Assembly (NCBI GenBank): GCA_910584165.1
Contig: CAJTZU010000002.1
Coordinates: 141,811 to 205,810 of the forward strand
Length of the DNA: 64,000 bases
Origin: an uncultured Bacilli bacterium
GTDB lineage: Bacteria; Bacillota_I; Bacilli_A; RF39; UBA660
Reading direction: 5' to 3'
Shown here: piece by piece, positions 919 to 50,104 of the stretch
Numbering within the stretch: the stretch's first letter is position 1
How the letters are laid out: each line of letters begins with the position of its first letter
Made by a program: the position numbers and the translations under genes
Notes under the pieces: generated by a model
Told to the model about the DNA's origin: nothing
Database searches by the model: none
Seen by the model: the letters and a program-made list of their open reading frames with translations, nothing else

Positions 919-3900
919 ATGTTAAGTTATGAAGAATTTAAAAAATTAGCACCAAGTGAAACTGTACAATTTGTAGATTTTGCGCTTCCATATTTGGATT
1001 ATTATGCAAGAGATAGTAGAACTTTAAACTTTAGAAGGCTAGATTCTAGCACAAATAGTTATTATAGTAAGTACTTTTTCTTATTACTTTATGCGATGGC
1101 TCAAAACCCAGAATATGAAACTTTTTTTAGTAAATTCGGTTTTGAAAAAGAGCGTGTAAAAGTAGAAAAAGAAAGTATGACTTCTAATAAAACAAAAGAG
1201 GAATTATTTACTTTAGCAGGAGCAATTATTCCAAACTTTGATGATACTACTAAATATGAGTCTTTGACACCTATTGATATCTTTATACCGATATTAGATG
1301 GCTATTGGAATCGTTGTGGTCAAAGTATTTATGATAGTTTATTTCCAAGATGTCAATTTGGAAACTTTAAAAATGAGTTAGTTAGTTATAATCAAGGTAT
1401 TAAGGCAGAACAAGAAAGATTTTTAGAACAAGGAATATATGGAAATTTACCAATTACAGTTATTTCTTATTTAGAAACAGCTTCTAAGATAAGAAGTTTA
1501 TTATTTCAAAAAGTAAATAGTACGCAAAACGAAATTTTAAAAAAATTAGAAGAAGATATTGTTCCTATATCTTTAGTTTTAGCTACTTATTATTATAAAG
1601 ATACTCCAATTTATGTAGAAGAAAATGTAAGTGAACAAACCGCTATTAAAGAATTTTTATCAACAAAAGGAATTACTTTAGACAAGATTCTTCAAAATTT
1701 ATCTATTAGTATGGGAGTAAGAGAAGTGTCTGAAACTTCAAGGAACTTAATTGCTATTAAAAATTTATATCAAGAATATTGTAGTGAAGGTTATTTTCAT
1801 GGAAAAGAGCAGGCTAGTGTCTCTGTTCGTGGAATATTAGAGAATGTTTTTAACCGTGAATTTACAGATAGTGTAGCAGTAGAGAAATTATTTGCTAAAA
1901 TGAATTGCTATATCGGAATGTTTGAGCATTTTGATCAAAATATTACACAATATATAGAAACACAAAGACGTAATTATTCTGCTGAGTATGTTAAAAGCTT
2001 TTATGGAGATTTATCAAAAGAAGCTCGTGAATTTGCAGATTTTACTGCTAAGATTTATCTTTTATTATTACAGAAAATGAAGGATAATAAGCATAATTCT
2101 AAATTGTTATTTGCAGAGGATGATGCAGATACTTTAGCGCTTTTAATAGCCACTTATTATTTTGATGGTGATGTTAGTGAATTTTTTAAAGATTATGGTA
2201 TTACTTTAGATAAATTACTTACTCTTTTAAATATAACTCTTACAAAAGAAGAGATAGAAACAGTAGAATTAAATCAAAAAGTATTAGTGGACCGTTATAG
2301 AAGATTCTTCTATGAAGGTGTTAATAGAGGTAAGGGTGCAAAAAATCTTACCATTAATGACATTGCTCATAATCTTTGTAATAGAAACTTTAATCGTAGT
2401 ATGATTATGGAATCTATTTTCTCTGAATTAACAGATGAGATGGATTTAGAAAGTGATTTCTTAGGACAATTACAAACACACTTAGAGCAAAAAGAACAAA
2501 ACCGTAAAATGAAATTAACACAAAGATTATTCCGTGATATGCCTGTTGAAACAGTAGAAATTCTAGAGAATTCTTCTAGAGTACATACATATTTATTAAA
2601 ACAGTTAAAAGGTTGGTCAGAAGAAGATATAAAATCATTATCTTTATTGTTAGGAACTTTATTATCTTCTAATACAGATGCGAAAGCTTATTTACAATAT
2701 TTAGGATTTAGTGTATCTAGTGTTAGTTCTTATTTAAACATTAATAGTAATGGTCTATTAAATTTCCCTATTGATATAGATTTATTATCAAAAGAATATG
2801 GAAACTATATTTTTGGTGGAAATAATAAAGATAAAAAAAGAGAAGAATTATCTCCTTCCGCACTTGCTAAAAATATTTTTGCAAAAGAAATTAATAATAG
2901 TGTTGCCATTAGTAAATTTTTAGCGCATTTTAATCAAAGCTATAGTGAATATTCAAATTTTGATGAAAACTATCAAGTGTACTTAGAAAAAACGAAAGAA
3001 AGAAAACGAAAAGAAGAAGCAGAACAAGTTATTCGTTCTTACTCTTCAGCAGATTCTTATTTATTCAATGTATTTAAAATTTATCAAAGATTAAAAATAG
3101 AGTTAGAAGAAGGAAGAATTCGCACAACTCTTATAACAAGTGAAGATGATATTAAAGAGTTAAGTATGCTTCTTGGAATACTTTATGGTTCTAATTCTTC
3201 CAATAAATTTTTTGCTAAAAATAATATAACATTAGAGGCTGTTTTAAAAGCTTGTGCTCTTTCTGATTGTGATTTATTAAAAAATCTATATCATGCTAAC
3301 ATAGACTTTTTAGAAGGAAAAGAAGCATTTGGTAAATACTTAGAAAAAGATTCTCCTAATTATAGAGGAAGAAGAACAGAAGATGACTTTGCTAAAAGAA
3401 TTTTTGATACAAGTATTAATGAAAGTATGCTTTTAGAGAATTTAGCGGTACAATTAGGTGCTAACTATGACATATTAAAAGAAGAAGTAGAAACAGGAAA
3501 AGATTATGAATTATCACTTACTATAGATGATAGAATTGCTTTATTATCAGGAGAAGCAGTAGATACTTTGGATTTAAGTGATATTAAAAGTGTATTGCAT
3601 TTTGGTAATTCTTTATCTGTCCATTCTAAATACATTCATGATGAGCTTCCAAAATTAATGTTAAGTGATGTACATCAAGCTTCTATTGATACTATTAATG
3701 GTATTATTAATAGGGTTTGTGAAAAGGAAGAAAATCAAGTATCACAAAAGAAAGGATGGTTTGCTAGATTATTCTCTGTTTCTGTAGATGAACCTTCTTC
3801 ACCAAAGTATGTATTAAATCCAGGAGCAGTAGAAGAATTAAAAGTAGCTATCGATACGAACATTTCTACTTTATCAAAGGAATTATTAGGATATGATGCT

Positions 3901-7716: not shown

Positions 7717-9477
7717 ATGAAAAATAATAAAGCACACTATTTATCAGCTTCTTTAATACTTATTACTATTTGTTTTTTAAGCATTGGGTTCTCTGCTTTT
7801 CAGGAACCTCTATTGATTGACAATGTAGGTGTTACTGTTCGATTTTTGGAAGATATGCGCATAACCGGCATTCAAGTAAATGCTTCTACTGCTGGGGTAG
7901 TTTCTAATTATGAAGATTATAATATACACAATTTAAAAGCTGGCATTTATTTACCAAATAAGGATTCCTCTATTACTTATAAAATAAAAACTACTAATTT
8001 TGGAAATATAGAAATGGGAATTTTTGATATTACAGGTTTACCAAGTAATTTAACTTACGAAATACAAGAATATAATCTAAAAGAAAAGCTTTGTGATATC
8101 AATAAGAAATGTACATTAGGTTCTGAAAAAGATTTTTATTTAACGATTAAATATAAAGAGAATGGTTATGATTCTTCAAAATTGAATTATGATTTTAATT
8201 TAAATGTGGATTTTAGAGGATTTCATAAGATTGTATATATAAATATTAAAAATACTACAAATTATCCAAAAGAAGTAATGGATGGGGATAATTTAGAAAT
8301 TGCATTTGCTACAGATATTCCTGGAAAAGTAAAACTTACTGGTAGTAATTCATATACTTATAATACTAATATATTATCTGTTAACAATGTAAAAGAAGAT
8401 TTAACTGTAGATAGAGTATTCAGATTTTATGAAGAAATTTTGAATAGAAATCCACTATCTTCTGATTGCCCTAGTTTACCTATAACAACAGGTAAAGGGC
8501 AAGGAGCTTCTTTTTGTAAAACGACTGATAATTATGGGGATAGTTATTACTATCGTGGCGCAGTAAAAAATAATAATGTAAAATTTGGAGGTTATTATTG
8601 GAAGATAATAAGAATAAATGGAGATAATACTGTTAGGATGATTTATAATGGCAAAGTAAGTCAATTATCAAAACCATTAGAAAATGGAACAGATGATTCT
8701 TCTACAAATTATACTAATATAGGTTTGGGTATTTTTAATCCAGATGGTCGTGACAATGCTTATATGGGCTATATGTATGGGATGGTTAATGCTACTAGTT
8801 ATCAAGATGCACATGCCAATACTAATTCTAGTACAGCAAAGAGAAAATTAGATAGTTGGTTTCTTAGTAGTGGTTTAAATAATGATTCCAATAAGAAATA
8901 TTTAGCAGATAATTTATTCTGCAACGATAGAAGTGTTTATAGTGAAACTTTATCAAACATGTCTGGTGGAATAAAGCAATTGCCTGTACATGCTAGTGGA
9001 GCAGAAAATTTCCCTGCAGATACAGGAAAAGGGTATGGAAAAAATGTTACTTTTTATGGAACTTATTATCGTATGAGATTTGAATCTCTACCAACAGTAG
9101 CAACACATTATCCTACTTTAAAATGTATAAATAAAAATGACTCATTTACAGTATCAGATACAGTAAATGGAAATGGAGATTTAACTTATCCAATTGGGTT
9201 AATTACTATAGATGAAGCAATATTTGCTGGTTCTGCTAGATTAGTAGAGGACAATAGAAACTATCTATATACTGGATATAGATATTGGGCAATGTCTCCT
9301 GGATTTTATAATACTACTGCCTATATGGGTGGTATGATTCATCAAGGATGGATTAGTTTAGGAGCTCCTGTAACAGATGATAAATATAGATATTATCGAC
9401 CAGTTATCAATATTAAAGCAGAAACTTTTCTGAAATCTGGGGATGGAACGATTAATAATCCTTATGTATTTGAATAA
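7717..9477 (+). CDS. Large secreted protein (586 aa) with a SipW-cognate signal peptide
   Basis: N-terminus is LILITICFLSIGFSAFQEP, the same G-F-S-A-F motif as the 4723 gene. The body is Asn/Tyr/Gly-rich. Confidence 0.65.
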   Translation: MKNNKAHYLSASLILITICFLSIGFSAFQEPLLIDNVGVTVRFLEDMRITGIQVNASTAGVVSNYEDYNIHNLKAGIYLPNKDSSITYKIKTTNFGNIEMGIFDITGLPSNLTYEIQEYNLKEKLCDINKKCTLGSEKDFYLTIKYKENGYDSSKLNYDFNLNVDFRGFHKIVYINIKNTTNYPKEVMDGDNLEIAFATDIPGKVKLTGSNSYTYNTNILSVNNVKEDLTVDRVFRFYEEILNRNPLSSDCPSLPITTGKGQGASFCKTTDNYGDSYYYRGAVKNNNVKFGGYYWKIIRINGDNTVRMIYNGKVSQLSKPLENGTDDSSTNYTNIGLGIFNPDGRDNAYMGYMYGMVNATSYQDAHANTNSSTAKRKLDSWFLSSGLNNDSNKKYLADNLFCNDRSVYSETLSNMSGGIKQLPVHASGAENFPADTGKGYGKNVTFYGTYYRMRFESLPTVATHYPTLKCINKNDSFTVSDTVNGNGDLTYPIGLITIDEAIFAGSARLVEDNRNYLYTGYRYWAMSPGFYNTTAYMGGMIHQGWISLGAPVTDDKYRYYRPVINIKAETFLKSGDGTINNPYVFE

Positions 9478-9507
9478 TACTACATAGAATTATGTAGTAT
9501 TTTTTTG
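9476..9507 (+). terminator. Rho-independent terminator ending the SipW cluster
   Basis: ATACTACATAGA-ATT-ATGTAGTAT hairpin followed by TTTTTTT. Confidence 0.7.
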
Positions 9508-9533
9508 TATAATAAATAAAGTGAGGAAAATAT

Positions 9534-10043
9534 ATGGATAATAGAAGTAAAAAATTTGTTTTTATACCTTTTTGCCTAATGGCTCAAGCGTATCAAGCCC
9601 AAGGAATTGTAAAATATGAATGGAAATCTTCCATTAAACCATTTATGCAATTGTTACTTGATTATGATATTAATATTATTCAAATGCCATGTGCAGAAAG
9701 TAGTTTTAATCATTCCTTGATAAGAGAACCAAAAGGACTTAGTAAATATAATACAAAAGAATTTAATAATCATTGCGAATTATTAGCAGATAGCGTATCT
9801 AAAGAAGTCATACAATTAGTAGAAAGTGGCTATCAAGTATTAGCAATTTTAGGAATAGAACAATCACCGTCTTGTTGTGTAAATTATATTTATACCAATA
9901 AAGGGACAGAAAATAGAAAAGGTTTGTATATGGAGAAATTGTGTGATAAAATAAAATACTTAGAAATCCCCATAATAGGAATTAATCGTAAATATATTCA
10001 AAAGTCATTAAAAGAATTAGAAAATATTTTAAAGCATCAATAG
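9534..10043 (+). CDS. Hypothetical Cys-containing protein (possibly DUF523-like)
   Basis: 169 aa with Cys pairs (FCLMAQ, MPCAES, SPSCC). Only a weak resemblance to the DUF523/YbbK layout. Confidence 0.5.
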   Translation: MDNRSKKFVFIPFCLMAQAYQAQGIVKYEWKSSIKPFMQLLLDYDINIIQMPCAESSFNHSLIREPKGLSKYNTKEFNNHCELLADSVSKEVIQLVESGYQVLAILGIEQSPSCCVNYIYTNKGTENRKGLYMEKLCDKIKYLEIPIIGINRKYIQKSLKELENILKHQ

Positions 10044-10107
10044 ATACTCTACAAAATGTAGAGGAATTAGAAATATTCCTTATGGTATACTTTAGTTGGT
10101 GATAAAA

Positions 10108-37267: not shown

Positions 37268-39997
37268 ATGAAAAAAATTGGAATGTGCCTAGCCTTAACG
37301 CTAGGTCTTTTAGTCGGATTTACTGTTAATGCTCAAGCAGTAAGTGCAGCGACTTTAAAGAAAACAGACTCTGGATATTATTATGACAGAGCAAGAGCAG
37401 ATGGAAGTGACCACCATTCTTGGCACTATATGCAATATGAAATGGATGGAGAAGTTTCATACTGTATAGAGCCAAATGTACCAGAGGGAACAATTTACAA
37501 TCCCGGAAGTTGGGAAGCAACAGGACTTCCAAATGAAATAAAAGAAAGATTATTGTTAATTGGCTACTATGGATACACTTATCCGGGACACCAAACACTA
37601 CAATATCGTGCAGCAACACAAGGAATGATATGGGACATTATCATTGGTCACGGAGCAAATACCACTTTCTCAACAGAAAGATGGGGAGCAGGTGCAAGTT
37701 TTGATGTATCAGCAGAGAAAGCAGAAATCAATAGACTTATCGAACACCATTATGATAGACCAAGTTTTGATGGTAGTGTATATAAAGCACAAGTAGGAGA
37801 AACAATTACACTAACAGATACTAACAATGTATTATCACAATATAGTGTAAGCGTTAGTGGTGCTGAATATAGTGTTAATGGAAATACACTAACAATTAAG
37901 CCTACAAGAGATGGAAAGATAGATTTAACTTTAACAAAGAATATGCCTTATGCAAGTGGATATAAGTTATTTGTTGGAAATGAAATTCAAAATATGTTTG
38001 TTCCGGGAACTACTGATCCAGTTATGGCAAGAGTTAGAGTAAATAGTTATACAACACCAGTAGAGGGATATAAGCAAGATGTTGAAACTGGAACTGCACA
38101 GGGACAGGCAACTTTAAAGGGTGCCGAATATGGCGTATATGAAACTGCCACAGGAAGATTAGTAACAACAGTAGTTACTGATGAAAACGGTTATTTCAAA
38201 AGTGACGCAGTATTAGATTGGAACGATTACTATTTACAAGAAATTAAACCAAGTGAGGGTTATGAATTAGACAAAACTCGTTATAATGTAGATGTAAAAG
38301 GAAAAGACTCTGCAAGAGTTGATGTAGTAGAAAAAGTTATTAAAAACTATATTTCTATCTTAAAACAATATGAATATGTAGAGGGAGAAACAAAATTCTT
38401 AAATGCAGAAAAAGGTATTACTTTTGAGATTTATTATCCAAATGGAAATAAATTTGATGAAATAACAACAGATAAAAACGGTTATGCTTCTATCAATTTA
38501 CCTTATGGAGTTTGGAAATTCCATCAAGTAAATACTACAACAGGTTATGAGAAGATTTATGACTTCTATATAACAGTAAGTGAAACAAGTGAAAAAGAAC
38601 AATATTACAATGTATTAAATAATTCTTTGACTGCATATCTACAAGTAATCAAAGTAGATGAAGAAACTGGAAAGACTATCGCTATTGCAGATACTACTTT
38701 CAAAATCTTCAATACAGACACTAATCAATATGTATCACAATTTGTTGGTGGTAAAGTTATTAGTGAATTTAAGACAGATGAAAATGGTATTTTAGTAACA
38801 CCATTAAAATTAGTTGCAGGAAATTACAAACTAATTGAGGTATCTGCACCAAATGGCTACTTAAAAGATAAAAATGGTTTAAAATTTACTATCGGAAATG
38901 ATACACACTATAATTACACAACTTATGGAGCATTTATTACAGTAACTTATAAAAACACTCCAATTAAAGGACAATTAGAAATTCAAAAAACTGGAGAAGA
39001 TTTAGTTATAAAAGATAGCGAATATGTTTATGAAAAGAAAAAATTAAGTGGTGTAACTTTTGAAATCTACGCTGAAGAAGATATTTTATCTGCTGATGGA
39101 AACCATTTATATTACAATAAGGGAGATTTAGTAGATACTATCGTTACAAATGAGAACGGTTATGCTATTACAAAGAAATTGCCACTTGGAAAATACTATC
39201 TAATCGAAGTAAAAACACAAGATGACTATATTCTTGATGGTAATAAGCATTATTTCACTTTAAAACAAGTAGATGATGAAACTCCAGTAGTTTATGAATC
39301 ATATAGTGCTTTAAATTATCTTAAAAAGGCTACTATCGAATTTACTAAAAATGATCTAGTAAATGGAGATGTTATAGCAGACACTATCATTGAAATCTAC
39401 ACAGAAAAAGATGAACTAATCTTTACTGGAAAAACTGATAAAGATGGAAAAATTGTTATTACTGATTTAAAAGTTGGAAAATACTATATTTTAGAAAAAG
39501 AGCCAAGTACAGGCTATGTAATTACTGATGAAAAAGTTTATTTTGAATTAAAAGAAAACGGAGAAATCGTTAAGGCTGAAATGAAAAATAAACCAGTAAC
39601 TGGAACTCTTGAATTTACAAAAACAGATGTAAGTACAGGAGAGCCACTTCCAAATACACTTATTGAAATCTACAATGATAAAGATGAGTTAATCTTTAGT
39701 GGAAGAACAGATGAAAACGGTAAAATCACTATTCCAGAAATTCGCTTTGGAAAATACTATATTTTAGAAAAGGAAGCACCAGAGGGCTATACACTTAATC
39801 CAGAAAGAATGTATTTTGAAATTCTTGAAGATGGAGAAATTGTAAAAGCAACAATGACTGATGAAAAAGTAATCGTTGATGTACCAAGTACAGGAATTAC
39901 TGATTCACACTTTATTGAAATTATTGGAGCATTACTTACTCTAGGTGGAATAGGAGTGATCGTTTATGTTAAAAAGAAAAAATCAAATCAAGAATAA
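37268..39997 (+). CDS. Sortase-anchored surface adhesin with Cna-B-type repeats
   Basis: Signal peptide MKKIGMCLALTLGLLVGFTVNAQA. Three repeats of ...GTLEFTKTD...GE.L.N..IEIY...DELIF.G.TD.(N/D)GKI.I..L..GKYYILEKE.P.GY. The C-terminal sorting signal is VPSTG, then a hydrophobic stretch, then KKKK. Confidence 0.8.
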   Translation: MKKIGMCLALTLGLLVGFTVNAQAVSAATLKKTDSGYYYDRARADGSDHHSWHYMQYEMDGEVSYCIEPNVPEGTIYNPGSWEATGLPNEIKERLLLIGYYGYTYPGHQTLQYRAATQGMIWDIIIGHGANTTFSTERWGAGASFDVSAEKAEINRLIEHHYDRPSFDGSVYKAQVGETITLTDTNNVLSQYSVSVSGAEYSVNGNTLTIKPTRDGKIDLTLTKNMPYASGYKLFVGNEIQNMFVPGTTDPVMARVRVNSYTTPVEGYKQDVETGTAQGQATLKGAEYGVYETATGRLVTTVVTDENGYFKSDAVLDWNDYYLQEIKPSEGYELDKTRYNVDVKGKDSARVDVVEKVIKNYISILKQYEYVEGETKFLNAEKGITFEIYYPNGNKFDEITTDKNGYASINLPYGVWKFHQVNTTTGYEKIYDFYITVSETSEKEQYYNVLNNSLTAYLQVIKVDEETGKTIAIADTTFKIFNTDTNQYVSQFVGGKVISEFKTDENGILVTPLKLVAGNYKLIEVSAPNGYLKDKNGLKFTIGNDTHYNYTTYGAFITVTYKNTPIKGQLEIQKTGEDLVIKDSEYVYEKKKLSGVTFEIYAEEDILSADGNHLYYNKGDLVDTIVTNENGYAITKKLPLGKYYLIEVKTQDDYILDGNKHYFTLKQVDDETPVVYESYSALNYLKKATIEFTKNDLVNGDVIADTIIEIYTEKDELIFTGKTDKDGKIVITDLKVGKYYILEKEPSTGYVITDEKVYFELKENGEIVKAEMKNKPVTGTLEFTKTDVSTGEPLPNTLIEIYNDKDELIFSGRTDENGKITIPEIRFGKYYILEKEAPEGYTLNPERMYFEILEDGEIVKATMTDEKVIVDVPSTGITDSHFIEIIGALLTLGGIGVIVYVKKKKSNQE

Positions 39998-40622
39998 GAA
40001 AGGTAGTAAGAGTCAACTAATTATAGTTGGCTCTTTACTTATCATTCTAGGTATTGGAGTAATTGGTGGTAAGTATTTATATAATTATCTTCAAACAAAA
40101 AATGAAGAACAGTTAATTGATACTTTCTTTGAAGAACAAAAAGAAATAATCGAAGATACCACTCCAGAAACACCAGAAGAAAAAGTAGAAAGTGAAACAC
40201 CACAAACTACTAAAAGTAAAATAGATTATTTTGCAGTAATTAAAATACCTAAAATTGGGTTAGAAAAAGGACTAGCAAATAAAGGCAGTTATTATAACAA
40301 TGTTAATAGAAATATACTTGTTCTTAATGAATCTGATATGCCAGATAAGGATAAAGGAAATATGATACTTGCAGGACACTCTGGAAGTGGAAGAACTGCA
40401 TATTTTAAGAATCTTCATAAATTACAAGCAGATGATGAAGTGAGTATTTTCTATAATGGATACGAGTATAAGTACAAAGTCGTTAATCAATACGATATTG
40501 AAAAAACTGGAACTGCAAACATTGTTAGAAATGCTGAAAAAAGTACCTTAACTTTAATTACTTGCAGACACAATACAAATAAGCAGATTATTTATATTTG
40601 TGAATTAGTAGAGAAAGTTTAG
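39966..40622 (+). CDS. Sortase (class A/B-like transpeptidase)
   Basis: ILAGHSG (catalytic His) and TLTLITC (catalytic Cys). N-terminal TM anchor. Confidence 0.8.
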   Translation: MLKRKNQIKNKKGSKSQLIIVGSLLIILGIGVIGGKYLYNYLQTKNEEQLIDTFFEEQKEIIEDTTPETPEEKVESETPQTTKSKIDYFAVIKIPKIGLEKGLANKGSYYNNVNRNILVLNESDMPDKDKGNMILAGHSGSGRTAYFKNLHKLQADDEVSIFYNGYEYKYKVVNQYDIEKTGTANIVRNAEKSTLTLITCRHNTNKQIIYICELVEKV

Positions 40623-41070: not shown

Positions 41071-41409
41071 ATGCCATATCAAAAAAGAATACCACCAGTT
41101 AAGGTGGATTTAAGTATAGAAAAATTTAATTATCTAGTTGAAATGCTAACTAGATATGAAACTACTGATAATGAGCGAATTAAAGAACTTGCTACTAAAC
41201 TGAAAGAAAAATTGTTGAGATACAGTATTCCTCGTGTTACTGAAGAACAAGAAGAATTTGTTGATGTTCGCTTTTATCCAAATGAAGCGTCTGAAATTAT
41301 TTATATGTTAGTTGCTAATGCAGAAGATATACAAATTGAAACTAACTATTATGAAGTGCTTTTAAAGGTTAGAGAAAAGCAAAAAGAAGCAAGTCAAAAT
41401 AATGATTAA
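41071..41409 (+). CDS. Hypothetical protein
   Basis: GGAGGA RBS. Confidence 0.5.
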   Translation: MPYQKRIPPVKVDLSIEKFNYLVEMLTRYETTDNERIKELATKLKEKLLRYSIPRVTEEQEEFVDVRFYPNEASEIIYMLVANAEDIQIETNYYEVLLKVREKQKEASQNND

Positions 41410-41441
41410 AGTAAGCAAATAAAAGATAAGGAGGTGAGAGC

Positions 41442-44400
41442 GTGGCAAATAAATTAAGAAATATAACTGAACTTTATTCTGATACTTTAAAAGATATTAG
41501 CACGAATCCAAATGAATGGTTATCATTTTTAGAGTGTGCTGCAATGAACTATAAATATTCTTTCTCCGATCAAGTTCTTATATATGCACAAAAGCCAAAT
41601 GCAAGTGCTTGTGCAGAGATAGAAACTTGGAACAAGTCATTAAAAAGATGGGTAAATAAAGGAGCAACAGGAATTGCACTTCTTTCCGAAAATAATGGTA
41701 ATACCTATTTAAGGTATGTTTTTGATGTATCAGACACTAATAGTAGGCACGGAAAAAATATTGTTTTGTGGTCTGTTACAAAGCCTTATGAAGAATATGT
41801 CATAGAAGCATTAGAAAATAGATATGGCGAGTTAGAAGATAATTCAAATATCGCTCAAGCAATTATTTCTAGTGCTAATAATATGGTAGAAGATAACTTG
41901 CCAGATTACTTATCAAATTTGATGTACTTCCGTAATAATAGTTTTTTAGAAGAACTAGATGAGTTAAATGTTAGAACTATATACAAAGAGGCATTACAGA
42001 AAAGTGTTGCCTATGTTATGTTAAAGCGTTGTGGTATAAATCCTAACGATTACTTCGATAAAGAAGATTTTAGTATATTACTAAATTTTAATACCTATGA
42101 TACGATTACTAGATTAGGTATAGCGACAAGTGATATTGCAGAATCTGGACTTCGTGAAATTTATAGCACAATTAAAAATGTGCGAATGAGTGAAATTGAT
42201 AAAATTCACACATTTGATAATATAAGTCAAAACAATTATGATATAGATGATGGCAGAAATATTGCCGAAAGGAGTGATTTAGATGAATCAAATAACATAT
42301 CAAACAGTAGGAGATTATCAAATACCAGACCTAGTACCACCACAAGAACAACAAGTAAATGGGAAATACGCATTGATGAGGTTAAGCCACTTGAAGAAGA
42401 ACGACAAAGCCTTATACACGAGCCTACTAATGCAGGGCAAATTACCAGACCACTTGATGGAAATTCAAGCGACAGCCGAGATGAGAGTGGAACAAATGGT
42501 AGAGGAGATGGCGAAGAAAGAGAACATTACAGAGGAAATGAAAGCCAAGAATCCAATGAACTGGATAGGCTTAATGAACAACTTGAAGATGTCAGCAGAG
42601 GAGATAGTAGCGAAAGAACTAATTTACAGTTAGGGATTTATGAAGAAACAAGCGAGGGACATTATATTGTTCCAGATAATAAGATAAATCAAATCCTAGC
42701 ACAAGCCCAATTAAAAGTATCTAATAGTGAAATTAAGAAATACTTTGAAATTGAAAAAGATAGAAGTAAAAGAGCAGACTTTATAAAAAATGCTTATGAT
42801 AATACCTATACAGGAGTTCTTGTAAATGAAGAAATGTATGGATATAAAGCATTTGATAATGGTCTGCTTTTTTGGAAAGGTAATTTTTTAACAAAAGATA
42901 CTGAAATATTAGTTAGTTGGGAAGATTTAACGGATCACTATGATTCAATGATACTTTTACACCAACTTAATGATAGAGTAAAAAGACTTCCATCAGTAAA
43001 AGAGCAAATGTCTTTACTTGATGAAGAAAAAGATTTGCCAGAGTTAGAGTTTTCGCAGGAATTTGTTGATAAATTCTTTCAAGAGTGTCATACTGAAACA
43101 AAGTATAGAATATATCAGCAATTTCAAAGTAGTTTATCTACTACTGAAAATGTCAATTTTTTGAAAGATTTATATGGAATAGGTGGTAGTTCTCATACAA
43201 TTCGTGGCTCTGGAATAGGAGAAGAACACGACTCTAAAGGTATTACTTTATATCGTGGCTATTTTGATGGAAGAAAAGAAACTTTATTAAAATGGAACTA
43301 TGTAGAAAAAAGAATAAAGGAACTAATTAAAATTGATAGATACCTTAATCCTAAAGAGTTACAAGAATATCCTACTTGGCTAGAAAAAGAAAAACAACGC
43401 ATAGAGTTAATGGAACAAGAAAATCAAATTGAAGAAGTTATAGAAACTCCAGAAGATGTTGTTTTTGATTATAGATATAAAGTGGGCGACCAAGTATATA
43501 TTGGTGCAGATAAATTTGAGATAATAGCACTAGATAATGATATTGTTAGATTATATGACTATCAATATCCTTTATTTAATCAAGAATTATCATTTGATGA
43601 GTTTGATAGAAAAGTAAGAGAAAATCCGTGTAATGACCATCTAAAAGTAGAGATAGTTGTTACTGAAGAAAAAAATGATAGTTTTAGTGCAGTAGAATTT
43701 GAAAAACAATTCCCTCATAATATGCGTTTTAAAGAAACTTCTGTAATAGAAAATAATTTATATTGGGTAACGCAAGAATTATTTACAGAAAGTGATCTTT
43801 ATAAGTTTCAAGAAGCATTTAAAAAGACTAATTTTGAGAAAGCGTATGTTACTGTTAGAGATTTAAGTAATTATGTTTTTGAAGATGATTTATCTAAAAA
43901 TGTACTAGCAATAGTTACTAAAGATAGTATAAACTTTACAGGATATGTTGATTCTATAACAGAAGTATTTGGAAATGAAGCAAGTGATTATTTTGCTCAA
44001 AGAGAAGAAATAACACAACCAAACGAATATGGCGAATTTAATGATGAAGTAGATTTAGTAGAGCATATATTATCACTTTATAATATGAGTGACATAGCAG
44101 TCAACTTTAATTCTAATGAGAATATAGTTGCTTATGCAGATGATATGGATTTAGAGGGTATAGAAGTATATGACTTTCTTTTAAATCAATTATTTGAATA
44201 TAACGAAGATGGTACAGTTGATTTAGTTGATAATCACGATTTAGAAAGACTAAAAGAATATCGTAAAAAATACGAAACAAAAGTTGCCGACCAAGAAAAA
44301 TTAGAAGAAGATTTAATTGGTAAAAATATCACCATTGGCGATAGAGAATATATCATTGATAGTATTACTAATGATATAGTATCGCTAAAAGATGTAACTT

Positions 44401-47400
44401 TCCAAAATGGTGTAGGTTTTCCTATTTTCCGTGATGAAGAATTAAGTAATGTATTATCTATACTTGCTGAAAAGAAAGAAGAACAGAAAAAGGAAACAAT
44501 AATACCAAATATCGCTAAAAAGAGAAGAAACAGAGTTACTACTTTTGATACACACCCAGAAATTAAAAATGAAGATAGAAATAACTTCCATATTACTGAT
44601 GATATGTTAGGCGTTGGTAGTGATCGTGAAAAATTTAATCGTAATGTTGCAGCAATTAAAGTCTTAAAGAAATGTGAAGAAGAAAATCGATTTGCTACTC
44701 CAGAAGAACAAAAGGTATTATCACAATATATCGGTTGGGGTGGTTTATCACAAGCCTTTGAAGAAACAAGTTCGTGGGCTAATGAGCATTTAGAACTAAA
44801 AAATATTCTTGATGAAGAAGAATATAGGTCTGCTATTGAATCTACAAGAACATCATTCTATACTCCTCCAGTAGTCATTCGTACAATGTATAAAGCATTA
44901 GAAAGTATGGGAATGAGAGATGGTAATATACTAGAGCCTAGTTGCGGTGTAGGGAACTTCTTAGGTATGATACCAGATACTTTAAAAGACTGTAAGTTGT
45001 ATGGTATAGAAGTCGATTCAATAAGTGGTAGAATTGCTAGACAACTATATCAAAAGAGTTCTATTGCAGTACAGGGTTATGAAAATACAGAACTTCCAGA
45101 TTCTTTCTTTGATGGTGCTATTGGTAATGTTCCATTTGATAGTCTTAAATTATTAGATAAGAGATATGATAAGCATAATTTCTTAATTCACGACTACTTC
45201 TTTGCAAAAACTCTTGATAAAGTAAGACCGGGTGGAATTGTTGCTTTCATAACAAGTAAAGGTACTTTAGATAAAGAAAATCCAAGTGTTAGAAAGTATA
45301 TTGCACAAAGAGCCGACTTGTTAGGAGCAATAAGACTTCCGAATAATACCTTTAAAGACAATGCAGGAACGAAAGTTACTTCTGATATTATCTTCTTACA
45401 AAAACGAGATTCAATAACTGATATAGAGCCAGACTGGGTTTATTTAGATACTGATGAAAATGGTATTAAAATGAATAGATATTTTATTGATAACCCAGAT
45501 ATGATATGTGGCAATATGAAAATGGAATCTACGAGATTTGGTATGGACTCTACTTGTGAAGCAAGAGAGGATATATCACTAGAAGAACAACTTAACAATG
45601 CTATTTCAAATATACACGCTGAAATAAAAGAATATGAGATAGATGATATAGGAGAAGATGAAGAAGATTTATCTATTCCTGCTGATTATAATGTTAAGAA
45701 CTTCTCATATACCATTGTTGATAATAAAATCTATTATCGTGAGAATAGTAGAATGTATCCACAAGAATTACCACTTACTACTGAAAATCGTATTAAAGGC
45801 TTAATTGAAATACGAGAGTGTGTAAGAAATCTATTGGAACTACAAACAGAGGACTTTCCAGATGAAGATATAAAACAAGAACAAGTAAAACTTAATAAAC
45901 TGTATGATAGTTTTACAAAAAAATATGGACTTATCAATAGCAGAGCGAATACCTCTGCTTTTTCTAATGATAACAGTTTTTATTTATTATGTTCTTTAGA
46001 GATACTAGATGAAAACAAAGAACTTCTTAAAAAAGCAGATATGTTTACCAAAAGAACAATACTTCCCCATAAGGAAGTAACGAGTGTAGATACTGCCAAT
46101 GAAGCCTTAATTATTTCAATATCTGAAAAGGCTAGAGTTGATTTAGAGTTTATGCAGAAACTATGTGGGCTTGATATGGACAAAATGCTAACTGACCTAG
46201 AGGGTGTTATTTTCAATGTACCAGAATATGGAGATCCTAATATATGGGTAACTGCTGATGAATATTTATCTGGTAATATTCGTGAAAAATTAAAGATAGC
46301 GAAAGAGTTTGCAGAAGATGACCATAGATTCAATATCAATGTAAAATGTCTTGAAGAAGTAATGCCAAAAGATTTAGAGCCACAAGAAATAAGTGTTAGA
46401 CTTGGTGCAACTTGGCTTCCAACAGATGTTATAGATGATTTTATAGATTATCTATTATCGCCATCTAATAGCATTAAAGACAGTATAAAAGTGCATTTTA
46501 TGGAGAGTACAGCCCAATGGAATGTCGAGGGTAAAAACTATGATAGAAGAAATGTAAAAGCATATTCTACTTATGGAACAGGAAGAATCAATGCTTATAA
46601 AATAATAGAAGAAACACTTAATTTAAAAGATGTTAGAATATATGACTATATCGAAAAAGATGGTAAAAAAGTACCAGAGTTAAATAAAAAAGAAACTGCT
46701 ATTGCACAGGCAAAACAAGAGCAAATTAAAACTGCTTTTGATGAGTGGATATGGAGTGATATAGACCGTAGGGAAAGATTAAGTAAAATCTATAACGAGA
46801 AATTTAATTCTAATAGACCTCGTGAGTATGATGGCTCTCATATCAATTTTCACGGTATGAATCCAGAAATAACTTTACGACCACACCAAGTAAATGCAAT
46901 AGCAAGAATACTTTATGGAAATTCAAATACTTTGTTAGCACACGAAGTAGGAGCAGGTAAAACTTTTGAAATGGTCGCTGCTGCAATGGAATCTAAAAGA
47001 TTAGGGCTATGTAATAAAAGTATGTTTGTAGTGCCGAATCACATTGTAGAACAATTTAGTTCGGAGTTCTTGCAACTTTACCCAAGTGCTAATATTCTCG
47101 TTACCACGAAGAAAGATTTTGAAACGGCAAATCGTAAAAAGTTCTGTTCTCGAATAGCGACTGGAGATTATGATGCAGTAATTATTTCTCATAGTCAATT
47201 TGAAAAGATACCAATGTCTGCTGAAAGACAAAGAACTATCTTACAAAATCAAATTGATGATATAAGTATGGGAGTACAAGATTTAAAAGACCATAATGGC
47301 GAGAATTTTACTATAAAACAATTAGTAAGATTACAAAAAAGCCTTGAAGCAAAATTAGCAAAGTTAAATGATACAAGCCGAAAAGATGATGTTGTAACTT

Positions 47401-49337
47401 TCGAGGAATTAGGTATTGATAGAATATTCGTAGATGAAGCCCATTACTATAAAAATCTTTTTCTTTATACAAAAATGCGTAATGTTGGTGGTATAGCACA
47501 AACAGAAGCACAAAAGTCTAGTGATTTATTTATGAAATGTAGGTATCTTGATGAATTGACTGGTGGTAGAGGTGTTGTATTTGCAACTGGTACACCAGTA
47601 TCAAATAGTATGGTAGAACTTTATACTATGCAAAGATATTTACAATATGCAGAGTTAGAGAAAAGAAACCTACAACACTTTGACGCTTGGGCTTCTACTT
47701 TTGGCGAAACTGTAACTGCTATTGAACTTGCTCCGGAGGGAACTGGTTATAGAGCAAAGACACGATTTGCCAAGTTTTATAACTTACCAGAACTGATGGC
47801 TATGTTTAAGGAAGTTGCCGATATTCAAACGGCAGATATGCTTAATTTACCACTTCCAGAAGCCCATTATGAAACAATAGTAGCAAAGCCTACTGAAATA
47901 CAAAAAGAAATGGTAAAAGAACTTTCTAATAGAGCAGATATGGTTAGAAATAAAAAGGTTGATCCATCAACAGACAATATGCTTAAAATAACAAATGATG
48001 GGAGAAAACTTGCACTTGACCAAAGACTTATGAATGATATGTTGCCAGATGATCCAGAAAGCAAAGTATCATTATGTGCAAATAATATTTATAGAATATG
48101 GCAAGAGCATAAAGAAGAACACTTAACACAATTAGTTTTCTGTGATTTATCTACACCGAGTGAAGATAAATTTAATGTATATGATGAGTTAAAAAGAAAG
48201 TTGCAAGAGTTAGGTGTTCCAGAAGATGAAGTCGAGTTTATTCATAATGCCAATACCGATATACAAAAGAAAACTTTATTTTCCCAAGTAAGAAGTGGAA
48301 TAAAAAGAATATTGTTTGGTAGCACTTCAAAAATGGGTGCAGGAACAAACTGTCAAGACAAACTAATTGCAATTCATAACCTAGACTGTCCGTGGCGACC
48401 TGCTGACCTTATACAAAGAATTGGAAGAATATTAAGACAGGGAAACAAAAATAAAGAAGTTTATATTTATAACTATGTTACAGAGGGAACTTTTGACGCA
48501 TACCTTTATCAATTAGTAGAGAATAAACAACGATTCATTTCACAGATAATGACTTCTAAAACTCCAGTAAGATTTGCTGAAGATATAGATGAAGCAGCAC
48601 TTAATTATGCACAGATAAAAGCACTTGCAGCAGGTAATCCTTTGATAATGGAAAAGACTGATTTAGATACACAAGTTGCTAAATTAAAACTCTTAAAACA
48701 AAATCATTTGAGCCAAATATATGCTATGGAAGATAAGGTGGCAAAGTATTATCCTAGTGAAATAAAAAGACTAGAATCACGAATAGAGGGTTATAAAAAA
48801 GATATAGAACTAGCCGAAAAAAATACTCCAAATAGTGATGAAAAATTCCAAAGTATGATCATTAAAGGTGTAACTTATACTGATAAAAAACAAGCAGGAG
48901 ATAAGATACTTGAGTTATGTAAAAACATTGAAAAAACTGAAAAACAAGAGATAGGAAGTTATAGAGGTTTCAAGATGGAACTTGATTATGAGTATGGTAG
49001 TTTTCATATATATTTGAAAAATGAGTTATCACACTCTGTAATTCTTGGTAATGATAATCTAGGTAATATTACCCGTATCAACAATGAAATAGATGGTTTC
49101 TCTTTTGATTTAGAAAGAGAACAAACAGAGTTAGAGAATACCAAAATTCAATTTGAAAATGCTAAAGAAGAATGTAAAAGACCATTTAAACAAGAACAAG
49201 AGTTAAAAGAAAAATCAAAGCGATTAGATGAAGTAAATGTTCTGCTTAATATGAATGAAAAGGACAAAGAAGTTATAGATTTTGATGATAATGTCGAAGT
49301 AGAAAGTCAAAGGTGTAATAAAGACTATGAAAGATAA
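41442..49337 (+). CDS. Giant multidomain protein: ArdC-N (DUF1738) ssDNA-binding domain, disordered linker, N6-adenine DNA methyltransferase and SNF2-family helicase
   Basis: ArdC-N (QVLIYAQKPNASACAEIETWNKSLKRWVNKGATGIALL). MTase motifs LEPSCGVGNFLG and DGAIGNVPFD. Helicase motifs LLAHEVGAGKTFEM (Walker A), VDEAHYYKN (DEAH) and QRIGRILRQGN (motif VI). Confidence 0.8.
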   Translation: MANKLRNITELYSDTLKDISTNPNEWLSFLECAAMNYKYSFSDQVLIYAQKPNASACAEIETWNKSLKRWVNKGATGIALLSENNGNTYLRYVFDVSDTNSRHGKNIVLWSVTKPYEEYVIEALENRYGELEDNSNIAQAIISSANNMVEDNLPDYLSNLMYFRNNSFLEELDELNVRTIYKEALQKSVAYVMLKRCGINPNDYFDKEDFSILLNFNTYDTITRLGIATSDIAESGLREIYSTIKNVRMSEIDKIHTFDNISQNNYDIDDGRNIAERSDLDESNNISNSRRLSNTRPSTTTRTTSKWEIRIDEVKPLEEERQSLIHEPTNAGQITRPLDGNSSDSRDESGTNGRGDGEEREHYRGNESQESNELDRLNEQLEDVSRGDSSERTNLQLGIYEETSEGHYIVPDNKINQILAQAQLKVSNSEIKKYFEIEKDRSKRADFIKNAYDNTYTGVLVNEEMYGYKAFDNGLLFWKGNFLTKDTEILVSWEDLTDHYDSMILLHQLNDRVKRLPSVKEQMSLLDEEKDLPELEFSQEFVDKFFQECHTETKYRIYQQFQSSLSTTENVNFLKDLYGIGGSSHTIRGSGIGEEHDSKGITLYRGYFDGRKETLLKWNYVEKRIKELIKIDRYLNPKELQEYPTWLEKEKQRIELMEQENQIEEVIETPEDVVFDYRYKVGDQVYIGADKFEIIALDNDIVRLYDYQYPLFNQELSFDEFDRKVRENPCNDHLKVEIVVTEEKNDSFSAVEFEKQFPHNMRFKETSVIENNLYWVTQELFTESDLYKFQEAFKKTNFEKAYVTVRDLSNYVFEDDLSKNVLAIVTKDSINFTGYVDSITEVFGNEASDYFAQREEITQPNEYGEFNDEVDLVEHILSLYNMSDIAVNFNSNENIVAYADDMDLEGIEVYDFLLNQLFEYNEDGTVDLVDNHDLERLKEYRKKYETKVADQEKLEEDLIGKNITIGDREYIIDSITNDIVSLKDVTFQNGVGFPIFRDEELSNVLSILAEKKEEQKKETIIPNIAKKRRNRVTTFDTHPEIKNEDRNNFHITDDMLGVGSDREKFNRNVAAIKVLKKCEEENRFATPEEQKVLSQYIGWGGLSQAFEETSSWANEHLELKNILDEEEYRSAIESTRTSFYTPPVVIRTMYKALESMGMRDGNILEPSCGVGNFLGMIPDTLKDCKLYGIEVDSISGRIARQLYQKSSIAVQGYENTELPDSFFDGAIGNVPFDSLKLLDKRYDKHNFLIHDYFFAKTLDKVRPGGIVAFITSKGTLDKENPSVRKYIAQRADLLGAIRLPNNTFKDNAGTKVTSDIIFLQKRDSITDIEPDWVYLDTDENGIKMNRYFIDNPDMICGNMKMESTRFGMDSTCEAREDISLEEQLNNAISNIHAEIKEYEIDDIGEDEEDLSIPADYNVKNFSYTIVDNKIYYRENSRMYPQELPLTTENRIKGLIEIRECVRNLLELQTEDFPDEDIKQEQVKLNKLYDSFTKKYGLINSRANTSAFSNDNSFYLLCSLEILDENKELLKKADMFTKRTILPHKEVTSVDTANEALIISISEKARVDLEFMQKLCGLDMDKMLTDLEGVIFNVPEYGDPNIWVTADEYLSGNIREKLKIAKEFAEDDHRFNINVKCLEEVMPKDLEPQEISVRLGATWLPTDVIDDFIDYLLSPSNSIKDSIKVHFMESTAQWNVEGKNYDRRNVKAYSTYGTGRINAYKIIEETLNLKDVRIYDYIEKDGKKVPELNKKETAIAQAKQEQIKTAFDEWIWSDIDRRERLSKIYNEKFNSNRPREYDGSHINFHGMNPEITLRPHQVNAIARILYGNSNTLLAHEVGAGKTFEMVAAAMESKRLGLCNKSMFVVPNHIVEQFSSEFLQLYPSANILVTTKKDFETANRKKFCSRIATGDYDAVIISHSQFEKIPMSAERQRTILQNQIDDISMGVQDLKDHNGENFTIKQLVRLQKSLEAKLAKLNDTSRKDDVVTFEELGIDRIFVDEAHYYKNLFLYTKMRNVGGIAQTEAQKSSDLFMKCRYLDELTGGRGVVFATGTPVSNSMVELYTMQRYLQYAELEKRNLQHFDAWASTFGETVTAIELAPEGTGYRAKTRFAKFYNLPELMAMFKEVADIQTADMLNLPLPEAHYETIVAKPTEIQKEMVKELSNRADMVRNKKVDPSTDNMLKITNDGRKLALDQRLMNDMLPDDPESKVSLCANNIYRIWQEHKEEHLTQLVFCDLSTPSEDKFNVYDELKRKLQELGVPEDEVEFIHNANTDIQKKTLFSQVRSGIKRILFGSTSKMGAGTNCQDKLIAIHNLDCPWRPADLIQRIGRILRQGNKNKEVYIYNYVTEGTFDAYLYQLVENKQRFISQIMTSKTPVRFAEDIDEAALNYAQIKALAAGNPLIMEKTDLDTQVAKLKLLKQNHLSQIYAMEDKVAKYYPSEIKRLESRIEGYKKDIELAEKNTPNSDEKFQSMIIKGVTYTDKKQAGDKILELCKNIEKTEKQEIGSYRGFKMELDYEYGSFHIYLKNELSHSVILGNDNLGNITRINNEIDGFSFDLEREQTELENTKIQFENAKEECKRPFKQEQELKEKSKRLDEVNVLLNMNEKDKEVIDFDDNVEVESQRCNKDYER
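42283..42633 (+). CDS. Embedded +1-frame ORF encoding a TnpV-like small protein (116 aa)
   Basis: AAAGGAG SD lies 8 nt upstream of the ATG. The product has a globular composition and the ITY..GDY.IP.L...GKY..MR...L...LY.SLL..GKL.HL.EI...EEI...ELIYS pattern recalled for the TnpV family. In the main frame this stretch is low-complexity. Confidence 0.5.
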   Translation: MNQITYQTVGDYQIPDLVPPQEQQVNGKYALMRLSHLKKNDKALYTSLLMQGKLPDHLMEIQATAEMRVEQMVEEMAKKENITEEMKAKNPMNWIGLMNNLKMSAEEIVAKELIYS

Positions 49338-49386: not shown

Positions 49387-49725
49387 GTGCGAAAGGTGGA
49401 AAATTTTGATGAAACATTTATCAAAGACTATTGTGATGATAATTTTGCAGAATATCTTTCTGATATACTTGTGCGTTTGAAAAAGAGTAACCCTGAATAT
49501 AATTTGCTCTTAAAAAATCAAAGTAATCTAATGAATAAATACGATAGATTAGCAGATGTACTTGAAAATCATTGCTTATATTCTTTATCAAAAAATGAAG
49601 TAAAGGCATTGAAAAAGTATTTATTATTGAAAGATGATAGCAGAGAAATCGAAGAAAAAGAAATATTCATACAAGGTATGAGAGAATCTTATTTCTTATT
49701 TAAAAAATTAGATTTACTAAAATGA
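49387..49725 (+). CDS. Hypothetical small protein (paralogue of the 49763 gene)
   Basis: AGGAGGTG RBS. Shared C-terminal region L.KKEV..L..Y......R...E.K......G.R..YFL.KK..LLK. Confidence 0.5.
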   Translation: MRKVENFDETFIKDYCDDNFAEYLSDILVRLKKSNPEYNLLLKNQSNLMNKYDRLADVLENHCLYSLSKNEVKALKKYLLLKDDSREIEEKEIFIQGMRESYFLFKKLDLLK

Positions 49726-49762: not shown

Positions 49763-50104
49763 GTGGACTTCAATAAAATGTTTGATCAAGAGTGTGAAGA
49801 AAATTACTGGGATATAGTTAATTTTGTAACATCACATCTTATGAAAACAAGCAAAGAATATAAAAATTCTGCATATAGATGTTCCGATATTATAGAAGAA
49901 TATCCTAATTTAAAAACAGTATTAGAAGATGATACTCCAGTTGCTTTATCTAAAAAAGAAGTATCTGGCTTAATAGAATATATAAAAAAATCTTCTGATA
50001 GAAATACACTAGAAAAGAAACAACTGATATGTGCAGGTTGCAGAAGCAATTATTTTCTATTAAAGAAAATGGGACTACTAAAAGAAAATAATGAGAGCGA
50101 TTAA
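49763..50104 (+). CDS. Hypothetical small protein (paralogue of the 49387 gene)
   Basis: AAGGAGG RBS. Paralogous to the preceding ORF. Confidence 0.5.
   Translation: MDFNKMFDQECEENYWDIVNFVTSHLMKTSKEYKNSAYRCSDIIEEYPNLKTVLEDDTPVALSKKEVSGLIEYIKKSSDRNTLEKKQLICAGCRSNYFLLKKMGLLKENNESD

Follow-up and report, generated by a model that had tools for sequence, protein, structure and literature searches.

How many proteins does a single giant open reading frame (ORF) of a conjugative element encode, and in how many frames? This question is raised by a 64,000-nucleotide stretch of DNA from an uncultured Bacilli bacterium (contig CAJTZU010000002.1 of assembly GCA_910584165.1, positions 141,811 to 205,810), referred to here as the window and numbered from its first letter. 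The window contains a 7.9-kb ORF, the host ORF, that runs without a stop through a complete second ORF lying in its +1 frame. A first-pass annotation of the window noticed the second ORF, related it to the TnpV family of small transposon proteins, and left two readings: a genuine nested gene, with TnpV-like sequence inserted in-frame into a linker and low T content keeping the host frame open; or three genes (ArdC, TnpV and a methylase-helicase) whose boundaries have been lost. It named the comparison of orthologous elements and of conservation by codon position as ways to decide. The analysis described here argues with good confidence for a nested gene: a self-contained tnpV cassette (42203-42633) would lie inside the gene of a polyvalent protein, with both frames conserved and selected.

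The sequence features described for the nested ORF are all present. Its frame is offset from that of the host by one base ((42283-41442) mod 3 = 1), and it lies wholly within 41442-49337. A TAG stop in the tnpV frame, at 42280-42282, is directly 5' of the ATG, and a Shine-Dalgarno (SD) sequence ends 8 nucleotides (nt) from that ATG. The 7.9-kb host ORF contains no other plus-strand alternative-frame ORF of at least 60 amino acids, and an Rfam scan of window positions 41300-43300 returned no RNA family. The nested product matches Pfam family PF14198 (TnpV) over profile positions 1-111 of 111 (E = 2.9e-37; 127.5 bits, cut-off 27), so that the suggested family identity is borne out by a hidden Markov model search. 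The same family is carried by 153/153 TnpV homologues, and full-length matches hold across 34-82% identity. An AlphaFold2 model of the nested product, with a predicted local distance difference test score (pLDDT) of 88.3, consists of a beta-hairpin and five helices. Over the same nucleotides, the host-frame translation is of low complexity, as had been noted, and is rich in S/R/T/N/G/E/D.

The arrangement recurs in related elements. A search with host residues 1-520 gave 1145 protein homologues, and a scan of species-representative genomes gave at least 585 confirmed loci; the best 80 of these were fetched, which brought the set for comparison to 84 loci. In 84/84 loci, a +1-frame tnpV directly follows the N-terminal domain of the host protein, and the host ORF reads through it in 82. 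A TnpV-based scan of IMG/VR added 21 more clearly nested copies, together with approximately 40 free-standing ones. A copy on a Cohnella plasmid is also nested, and two distant homologues in which the host linker is invisible to blastp keep TnpV in the +1 frame, one of them with a host protein of 717 amino acids. The nested arrangement, in the same +1 phase, was found in all of the approximately 105 homologous loci examined; with the selection signatures of each frame described below, this supports the first of the two readings, a genuine nested gene.

The guanine-cytosine (GC) content of these hosts ranges from 26% to 58%, from low-GC Bacilli to Clostridia of approximately 58% GC. Nearly all of the 1145 homologues have a linker of approximately 117 amino acids over tnpV, constant in length and less conserved than its flanks, and a profile of the host-frame linker matches directly after the N-terminal domain in 111 of the 121 listed representatives that are long enough to hold it. 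Searching plasmids with TnpV by tblastn recovered mostly separate genes annotated as TnpV protein, along with copies buried in giant ORFs on plasmids of Clostridium perfringens, Subdoligranulum and Monoglobus. A blastn search of plasmids with nucleotides 41442-43500 gave no match. A tblastn search with the host-frame linker also gave no match, probably as a result of low-complexity filtering, and the TnpV frame and the N-terminal domain were then used as queries.

The constancy of the arrangement bears directly on the proposal of three genes (ardC-like, tnpV and methylase-helicase) with boundaries erased by indels of sequencing or assembly or by recent pseudogenisation. A few database proteins do stop at or inside the linker or change frame (P0020, P0033, P0034, P0036 and P0039). 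One of the corresponding loci, L161, is split: its ArdC-like domain is fused in frame to TnpV (P0039, 395 amino acids), and a separate ORF of 2019 amino acids follows. These split forms are nevertheless derived. As compared to its near relative L009, L161 has lost 1 nt from an A-run that precedes the SD; the loss may reflect natural variation or a sequencing error in the homopolymer. The gene for P0036 is interrupted by an IS3-family insertion element (HTH_Tnp_1 plus rve) that lies precisely where the N-terminal domain ends and truncates the giant gene; this insertion was seen in three contigs (L162-L164) from related samples. Both P0036 and P0039 had been considered as candidates for an unfused ancestral arrangement, and were set aside for these reasons. 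More than 100 independent assemblies, of varied taxa, GC content and sequencing technology, keep the host frame uninterrupted in the same way; 80 sequences contain 0 host-frame stops where approximately 8 per gene are expected; and no homologue with three cleanly separate genes was found. An artefact of sequence errors is discounted on the same evidence, and lost boundaries are an exceedingly improbable explanation of the locus.

The two frames leave distinct signatures in the nucleotides that they share. Across 82 unique nested genes, the mean nucleotide difference between pairs is 0.415/0.310/0.541 at tnpV codon positions 1/2/3; the corresponding values for the N-terminal domain in its own frame are 0.417/0.317/0.612. 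Read in host-frame terms, the overlap is most variable at codon position 1 and least variable at position 3, which is the reverse of a coding signature. Mean amino-acid identity over the same nucleotides is 47.5% in the tnpV frame versus 29.5% in the host frame. Among close pairs (2-22% divergence), 1645 changes leave TnpV unaltered and replace a host residue, as compared to 496 of the reverse type, for a mutational opportunity of 159:188. Expressed per opportunity, the rates are approximately 6-10 for TnpV-silent changes and approximately 2-2.6 for TnpV-replacing changes, independent of the effect in the host frame. Taken in combination, the codon positions, the identities and the close pairs show that TnpV is under ordinary purifying selection, as strong as that on the ArdC-like domain, and that the amino-acid sequence of the host linker drifts.

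These measurements also speak to whether tnpV might be a dead fossil of a swallowed gene, no longer expressed and conserved as a by-product of constraint on the host protein. Gene callers never report tnpV when the host ORF is intact, and overlapping frames inevitably have some conservation in common. A by-product of host-frame selection would, however, show the opposite of the observed pattern by codon position, in which variability decreases in the order 3 > 1 > 2 of the TnpV frame. In addition, TnpV-silent changes exceed host-silent changes by 3.3:1 where the opportunity is 0.85:1; TnpV identity equals that of the structured N-terminal domain; and the start codon, the SD, a low-structure initiation region and a promoter motif are kept despite near-saturated synonymous sites. 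An unexpressed fossil is very unlikely in light of these values. The TnpV-frame selection and the conserved start signals instead suggest that annotation of the locus as a single ORF hides a real gene, as the first-pass annotation had proposed.

Selection on the host frame takes a different form. Here, the expected number of stops was obtained by resampling synonymous tnpV codons with the codon usage of each host gene. A mean of 8.0 host-frame stops per gene is expected and none occurs in the 80 genes (median probability of an open frame 5e-6 per gene). The host-frame hydrophobic fraction is 0.140 versus 0.213 expected given no stops, and is lower in 80/80 genes; the fraction of F/W/Y/C is 0.023 versus 0.096 expected. 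At tnpV third positions where no stop is possible, T has a frequency of 0.214 versus 0.384 expected. The equivalent frame of free-standing tnpV genes contains 2-16 stops (mean 6.65 over the free-standing set). Only two members of that set, L106 and L113, have zero stops, and in both the host ORF is truncated shortly downstream; every zero-stop tnpV copy found sits inside a larger ORF. The absence of host-frame stops is due to selection and not to the low T content invoked in the first-pass annotation. Selection on the host frame acts only to keep it open and non-hydrophobic, as a soluble and probably disordered connector.

A more limited role for the open frame can be envisaged, in which it serves only for the transit of ribosomes, or for the protection or coupling of downstream RNA. 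The linker peptide would then be irrelevant, and the N-terminal domain would perhaps be separated post-translationally. Host-frame amino-acid changes accumulate at an approximately neutral rate (10.3 vs 6.2; 2.06 vs 2.6) and the linker is predicted to be disordered, both of which agree with this possibility. A frame kept open solely for transit would not be anticipated to lose hydrophobic, aromatic and Cys residues to a greater extent than the avoidance of stops demands, or to lose T at tnpV third positions even where no stop can arise. The residue bias suggests that the linker peptide belongs to a protein whose solubility matters, which weakens the transit explanation and leaves it little probability.

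The apparent motifs of the linker each shadow a feature of tnpV. Host E-R-S corresponds to the SD GAAAGGAG; the invariant host L292 to the TnpV G-D-Y motif; an invariant host E-Q to the TnpV M-N-N motif; and the invariant final L of host 'LQL' to the tnpV stop codon. For this reason, the in-frame insertion of TnpV into a pre-existing linker is less likely than the reverse, with the linker derived from an older tnpV cassette read in another frame. Ghosts of the same linker motifs, broken by stops, can be seen when free-standing tnpV genes are read in the alternative frame; together with the shadow correspondences, this points to tnpV as the older reading. The widespread occurrence of free-standing tnpV beside relaxases and serine recombinases likewise suggests that tnpV is the older gene. 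We infer that an ardC-like gene became fused to downstream genes by out-of-frame readthrough of tnpV and that the host frame was subsequently purged of stops, which would constitute overprinting by gene fusion.

The tnpV cassette would comprise: a sigma-A-type promoter-like element; an SD; an ATG; the 116-codon TnpV ORF; and a stop. Ribosomes translating the host ORF would read the cassette DNA one base out of phase, giving a hydrophilic, probably disordered linker of approximately 140 amino acids that connects the ArdC-like N-terminal domain with the methylase/helicase body. TnpV would be made separately via internal initiation, with an internal transcript as a probable further source.

The putative signals for internal initiation are written into host codons. 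Among 82 loci, the nested tnpV starts with ATG in 73, GTG in 4 and TTG in 4; one locus (L009) is non-canonical. The AAGGAG core of the SD is found in 61/82 loci, with the 8-nt spacing in 52. The region from -30 to +30 around the tnpV start has a folding energy of -5.2 kcal/mol, versus -10.3 kcal/mol in other windows of the same ORFs, and RNA structure is weaker at the tnpV start in 86/91 loci (Wilcoxon p = 1e-15).

An alternative route to TnpV would be programmed +1 ribosomal frameshifting toward the end of the N-terminal domain, such that a short and a long product arise from a single start and TnpV is made only as an ArdC-like::TnpV fusion. In many loci the tnpV frame extends 10-60 codons 5' of the ATG without a stop, and two database proteins, P0034 and P0039, are in-frame fusions of the N-terminal domain to TnpV. 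The latter is accounted for by the 1-nt deletion in L161. In the window, the TAG directly before the ATG speaks against such a fusion, and in L004-L006 the tnpV frame also opens exactly at the ATG. What is conserved instead is a canonical, optimally spaced SD with an ATG, and no conserved slippery sequence was noticed, although no search was aimed at one. Frameshifting as the sole source of TnpV is highly improbable, and internal initiation at the nested ATG is the preferred route.

A promoter scan of the window identified TTGATA-17-TATGAT at 42214-42242, inside the giant ORF and upstream of tnpV; this promoter-like element was absent from the first-pass annotation. The pattern TTGnnn-N17-TAnnnT is found no more than 100 nt from the tnpV start in 84/91 unique upstream regions, with a spacer of exactly 17 nt in 83. 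The background is 8-14/90 in other 100-nt windows of the same genes and a mean of 9.8/91 in shuffles. The codon phase of the motif is identical in all loci that carry it. The host dipeptide encoded at the -10 hexamer takes 11 forms (YD, YN, HN, YP, YA, DN, YS, YH, YT, QN and EN) with A2 and T6 kept, and the TTG of the -35 hexamer is kept while the host residues vary (F/I/V/L, then A/V/D/E). As the host residues vary while these nucleotides are retained, the constraint acts on the nucleotides, as expected of a sigma-A promoter. On balance, we favor an embedded sigma-A-type promoter upstream of tnpV, with less assurance than the nested gene itself. With the putative initiation signals included, the locus has the attributes of a two-frame, same-strand nested pair: one ORF inside another, selection on both, and separate signals for initiation of the inner gene.

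The nucleotides 5' of and overlapping the -35 hexamer have the family consensus AATCGCACATTTG, with high information content. This block (window 42203-42216) is conserved beyond the needs of the -35 hexamer, and may be an operator or UP-like element. Related blocks, CACACATTTG and CGCACATTCG, are located upstream of two free-standing tnpV genes (L118 and L127). In a GC-rich IMG/VR subgroup (L104, L105, L112 and L114), the nested tnpV and SD are present without TTG-N17-TAnnnT, and the upstream sequence differs.

Several observations weigh against the proposed nested cassette or moderate how its evidence should be read. The sequences are phylogenetically related, and counts over loci and pairs therefore overstate their independence. 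In a neighbor-joining tree of the short TnpV sequences, nearest neighbors are always of the same class, nested or free-standing, and the nested set does not form a clean monophyletic group. The start codon of one locus (L009) is ATT in place of the ATG of its relatives, with the SD intact. The promoter is a consensus match, and the invariant positions of its sequence logo are imposed by the search pattern, such that the real evidence for it is the positional enrichment in 84/91 regions and the varying host residues. The motif is missing from 7/91 loci, including the GC-rich subgroup and the C. perfringens locus (L001). Finally, a fold search with TnpV identified no informative structural relative, and its function is thus guessed from gene neighborhoods.

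Table 1. Positions of the nested tnpV cassette, of the host ORF and of other features in the window and in related loci.
Feature	Location	Strand	Description
Nested tnpV	42283..42633	+	ATG; 116 amino acids and TAG stop; +1 frame of host ORF
tnpV SD, GAAAGGAG	42267..42274	+	End 8 nt from ATG; host frame E-R-S
Upstream block AATTCACACATTTG and -35-like hexamer TTGATA (42214-42219)	42203..42219	+	Embedded in host codons
-10-like hexamer TATGAT	42237..42242	+	17 nt after -35; 40 nt before tnpV ATG
Host giant ORF	41442..49337	+	GTG start; 2631 amino acids; from ORF list and translation
Host N-terminal domain	41442..42215	+	Residues 1-258; ArdC-like fold
Host-frame linker	42216..42641	+	Residues 259-400; hydrophilic, probably disordered; reads through tnpV cassette
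Surface adhesin	37268-39997		909 amino acids; thioester domain and SpaA repeats; just upstream of giant ORF
Sortase	39966-40622		Just upstream of giant ORF
DUF6664 genes, tandem	49387-49725, 49763-50104		After giant ORF
Altered start, L009	~1331-1684		ATT in place of ATG
ArdC-like::TnpV fusion, L161	8001-9188		P0039
Downstream ORF, L161	9116-15175		2019 amino acids
IS3-family element, L162-L164	~8864-10081		At end of N-terminal domain
Second tnpV, L014	17846-18187		Free-standing type
Free-standing context, L090	6001-8548		tnpV, DUF6664, NikA-like gene, relaxase
Antisense ORF opposite tnpV, L001	8990-9361	-	
Antisense ORF opposite tnpV, L003	8909-9250	-	
Antisense ORF opposite tnpV, L089	2971-3333	-	
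Antisense ORF opposite tnpV, L161	8839-9147	-	

The host is a polyvalent conjugative-element protein, in which one giant ORF contains several enzymatic or effector domains. Its layout is: the ArdC-like N-terminal domain; the linker; an uncharacterised middle region; a weak methyltransferase match; and an SNF2/ResIII helicase. Pfam matches in the 2631-residue protein are to SNF2-rel_dom, ResIII and Helicase_C, with a weak match to Methyltransf_11, and homologues range from 700 to 3260 amino acids. The label of ArdC given to the N-terminal domain in the first-pass annotation holds at the level of the fold, which is assigned by fold comparison alone, and fails at the level of sequence profiles and of the HExxH motif. 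Residues 1-280 have no Pfam match even at E <= 10, ArdC-N (PF08401) included; the PDB, ArdC included, gives no sequence match to the domain by phmmer or profile; and NCBIfam returns nothing for it. The HExxH metalloprotease motif of the C-terminal half of ArdC is absent from residues 1-280, which contain only two His (SRHGK and KIHTF). In the AlphaFold model of the N-terminal domain, disorder begins at residue 258. At E <= 1e-3, the family of this domain comprises 3622 cluster representatives.

The window is a Firmicutes conjugative element, with ParA/ParB, an adhesin with a thioester domain and SpaA repeats, a sortase, Toprim and a relaxase around the giant ORF. The synteny of integrase, ParA, ParB, adhesin and sortase is found again in L161-L164. 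Two tandem DUF6664 genes follow the giant ORF, and in the free-standing context of L090, tnpV is followed directly by DUF6664, a NikA-like gene and a relaxase. An ancestral tnpV-DUF6664 module may survive in part in these tandem genes. As a clue to an ancestral operon this synteny was dropped, with DUF6664 found by tblastn downstream of 8/59 giant ORFs.

Two further observations concern tnpV copies at other loci. An Anaerofustis element (L014) contains a second tnpV approximately 6.6 kb downstream of its nested copy; this second copy has 4 stops in the frame equivalent to that of the giant ORF and is of the free-standing type, such that nested and free copies coexist in one element. Antisense ORFs of 102-123 amino acids lie opposite tnpV in several loci, and not in the window. 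They probably arise as a side effect of the depletion of T on the coding strand.

Free-standing relatives of tnpV adjoin either a NikA-like gene and a relaxase or a serine recombinase. These neighborhoods suggest a role for TnpV in mobilisation or excision of the element. The more specific idea that TnpV is an excision factor resembling lambda Xis gained no support here.

The closest known parallel is comS, reportedly described within srfAB of Bacillus subtilis by D'Souza et al. in 1994 and Hamoen et al. in 1995. Both comS and srfAB have functional products. As in the tnpV/host pair, the inner ORF is on the same strand, out of frame, equipped with its own ribosome-binding site and located inside a very large multidomain gene. 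The comS gene has 46 codons, is lineage-restricted, is the younger, overprinted partner and lacks its own promoter. In contrast, tnpV has 116 codons, belongs to an old and widespread Pfam family that also occurs free-standing, and has an apparent promoter of its own, with the host frame as the derived partner. Rz1 within Rz of the phage lambda spanins and genes B, K and E of phiX174 are likewise fully nested in the +1 frame, with independent starts and conservation across related mobile genomes. These are found in compact phage genomes, for which coding density is the usual explanation and both partners are specific functional proteins. The host segment over tnpV is instead a linker without sequence constraint in a 7.9-kb gene of a conjugative element. 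The present case seems to differ from comS, Rz1 and phiX174 in the ancient Pfam family of its inner gene, a seemingly complete cassette, a host frame that encodes only a linker, and the conservation of the pair across a very large family.

Free-standing TnpV (PF14198) is known from Tn4451/Tn4453 and from MOBQ2 integrative mobilizable elements, and has been postulated to be Xis-like or transfer-related (PMC3158075; PMC12084326). The comparison to a lambda Xis-like excision factor is cited in PMC3158075, and the neighborhood beside relaxases is described in PMC12084326. Nested TnpV is of the same family and similar length, and is also found in mobile elements with a relaxase or serine recombinase nearby. 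The Tn4451/Tn4453 and MOBQ2 tnpV genes are separate, with 2-16 stops in the giant frame, whereas the nested form has zero stops and an SD that doubles as host codons. Out-of-frame remodelled gene families are reported in a study of the E. coli pangenome (PMC8788219). Such families resemble the host linker in that a pre-existing gene, read in another frame, supplies part of a protein; in remodelling, they abandon the old frame. Here, the tnpV frame appears to remain functional, which would make the locus truly dual-coding.

No description of nested tnpV was found in the literature searched (open-access papers and bioRxiv). The host protein resembles the polyvalent proteins of conjugative elements and phages in that low-complexity linkers connect methylase and SNF2 helicase modules with an ArdC-like domain of the anti-restriction type. 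These proteins are said to have been described by Iyer, Burroughs, Anand, de Souza and Aravind in 2017, and we know of no polyvalent-protein linker in that work that doubles as an independent gene.

The dual coding could, in principle, be a regulatory device that uncouples the two products in time or place and not a frozen accident. The embedded promoter and SD would then supply TnpV constitutively or in donor cells, and production of the full-length polyvalent protein would be restricted to times at which the upstream transfer operon is transcribed. Ribosomes in the host frame would occlude or unmask the tnpV start, such that one product modulates the other. We consider such a device unlikely. 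If it did operate, the swallowing of still-functional genes would be a route by which the polyvalent proteins of mobile elements grow.

To our knowledge, the full nesting of long protein-coding genes on the same strand is considered rare in bacteria, with few accepted examples, mostly short or lineage-specific. Annotation pipelines actively remove nested genes, and gene callers routinely miss nested tnpV. TnpV is thus systematically under-annotated in conjugative elements, which affects both the typing of mobile elements and the search for TnpV function. The locus offers a 351-nt nested gene of a recognised Pfam family with separately measurable selection on each frame and putative expression signals within host codons, and its phase is kept across a host family of thousands of sequence clusters from gut and environmental Firmicutes. 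For the polyvalent proteins, the apparent conserved motifs of a widespread linker are the shadows of another gene. This makes the family a natural test bed for frame sharing, in which one frame is informative and the other is merely open and soluble.

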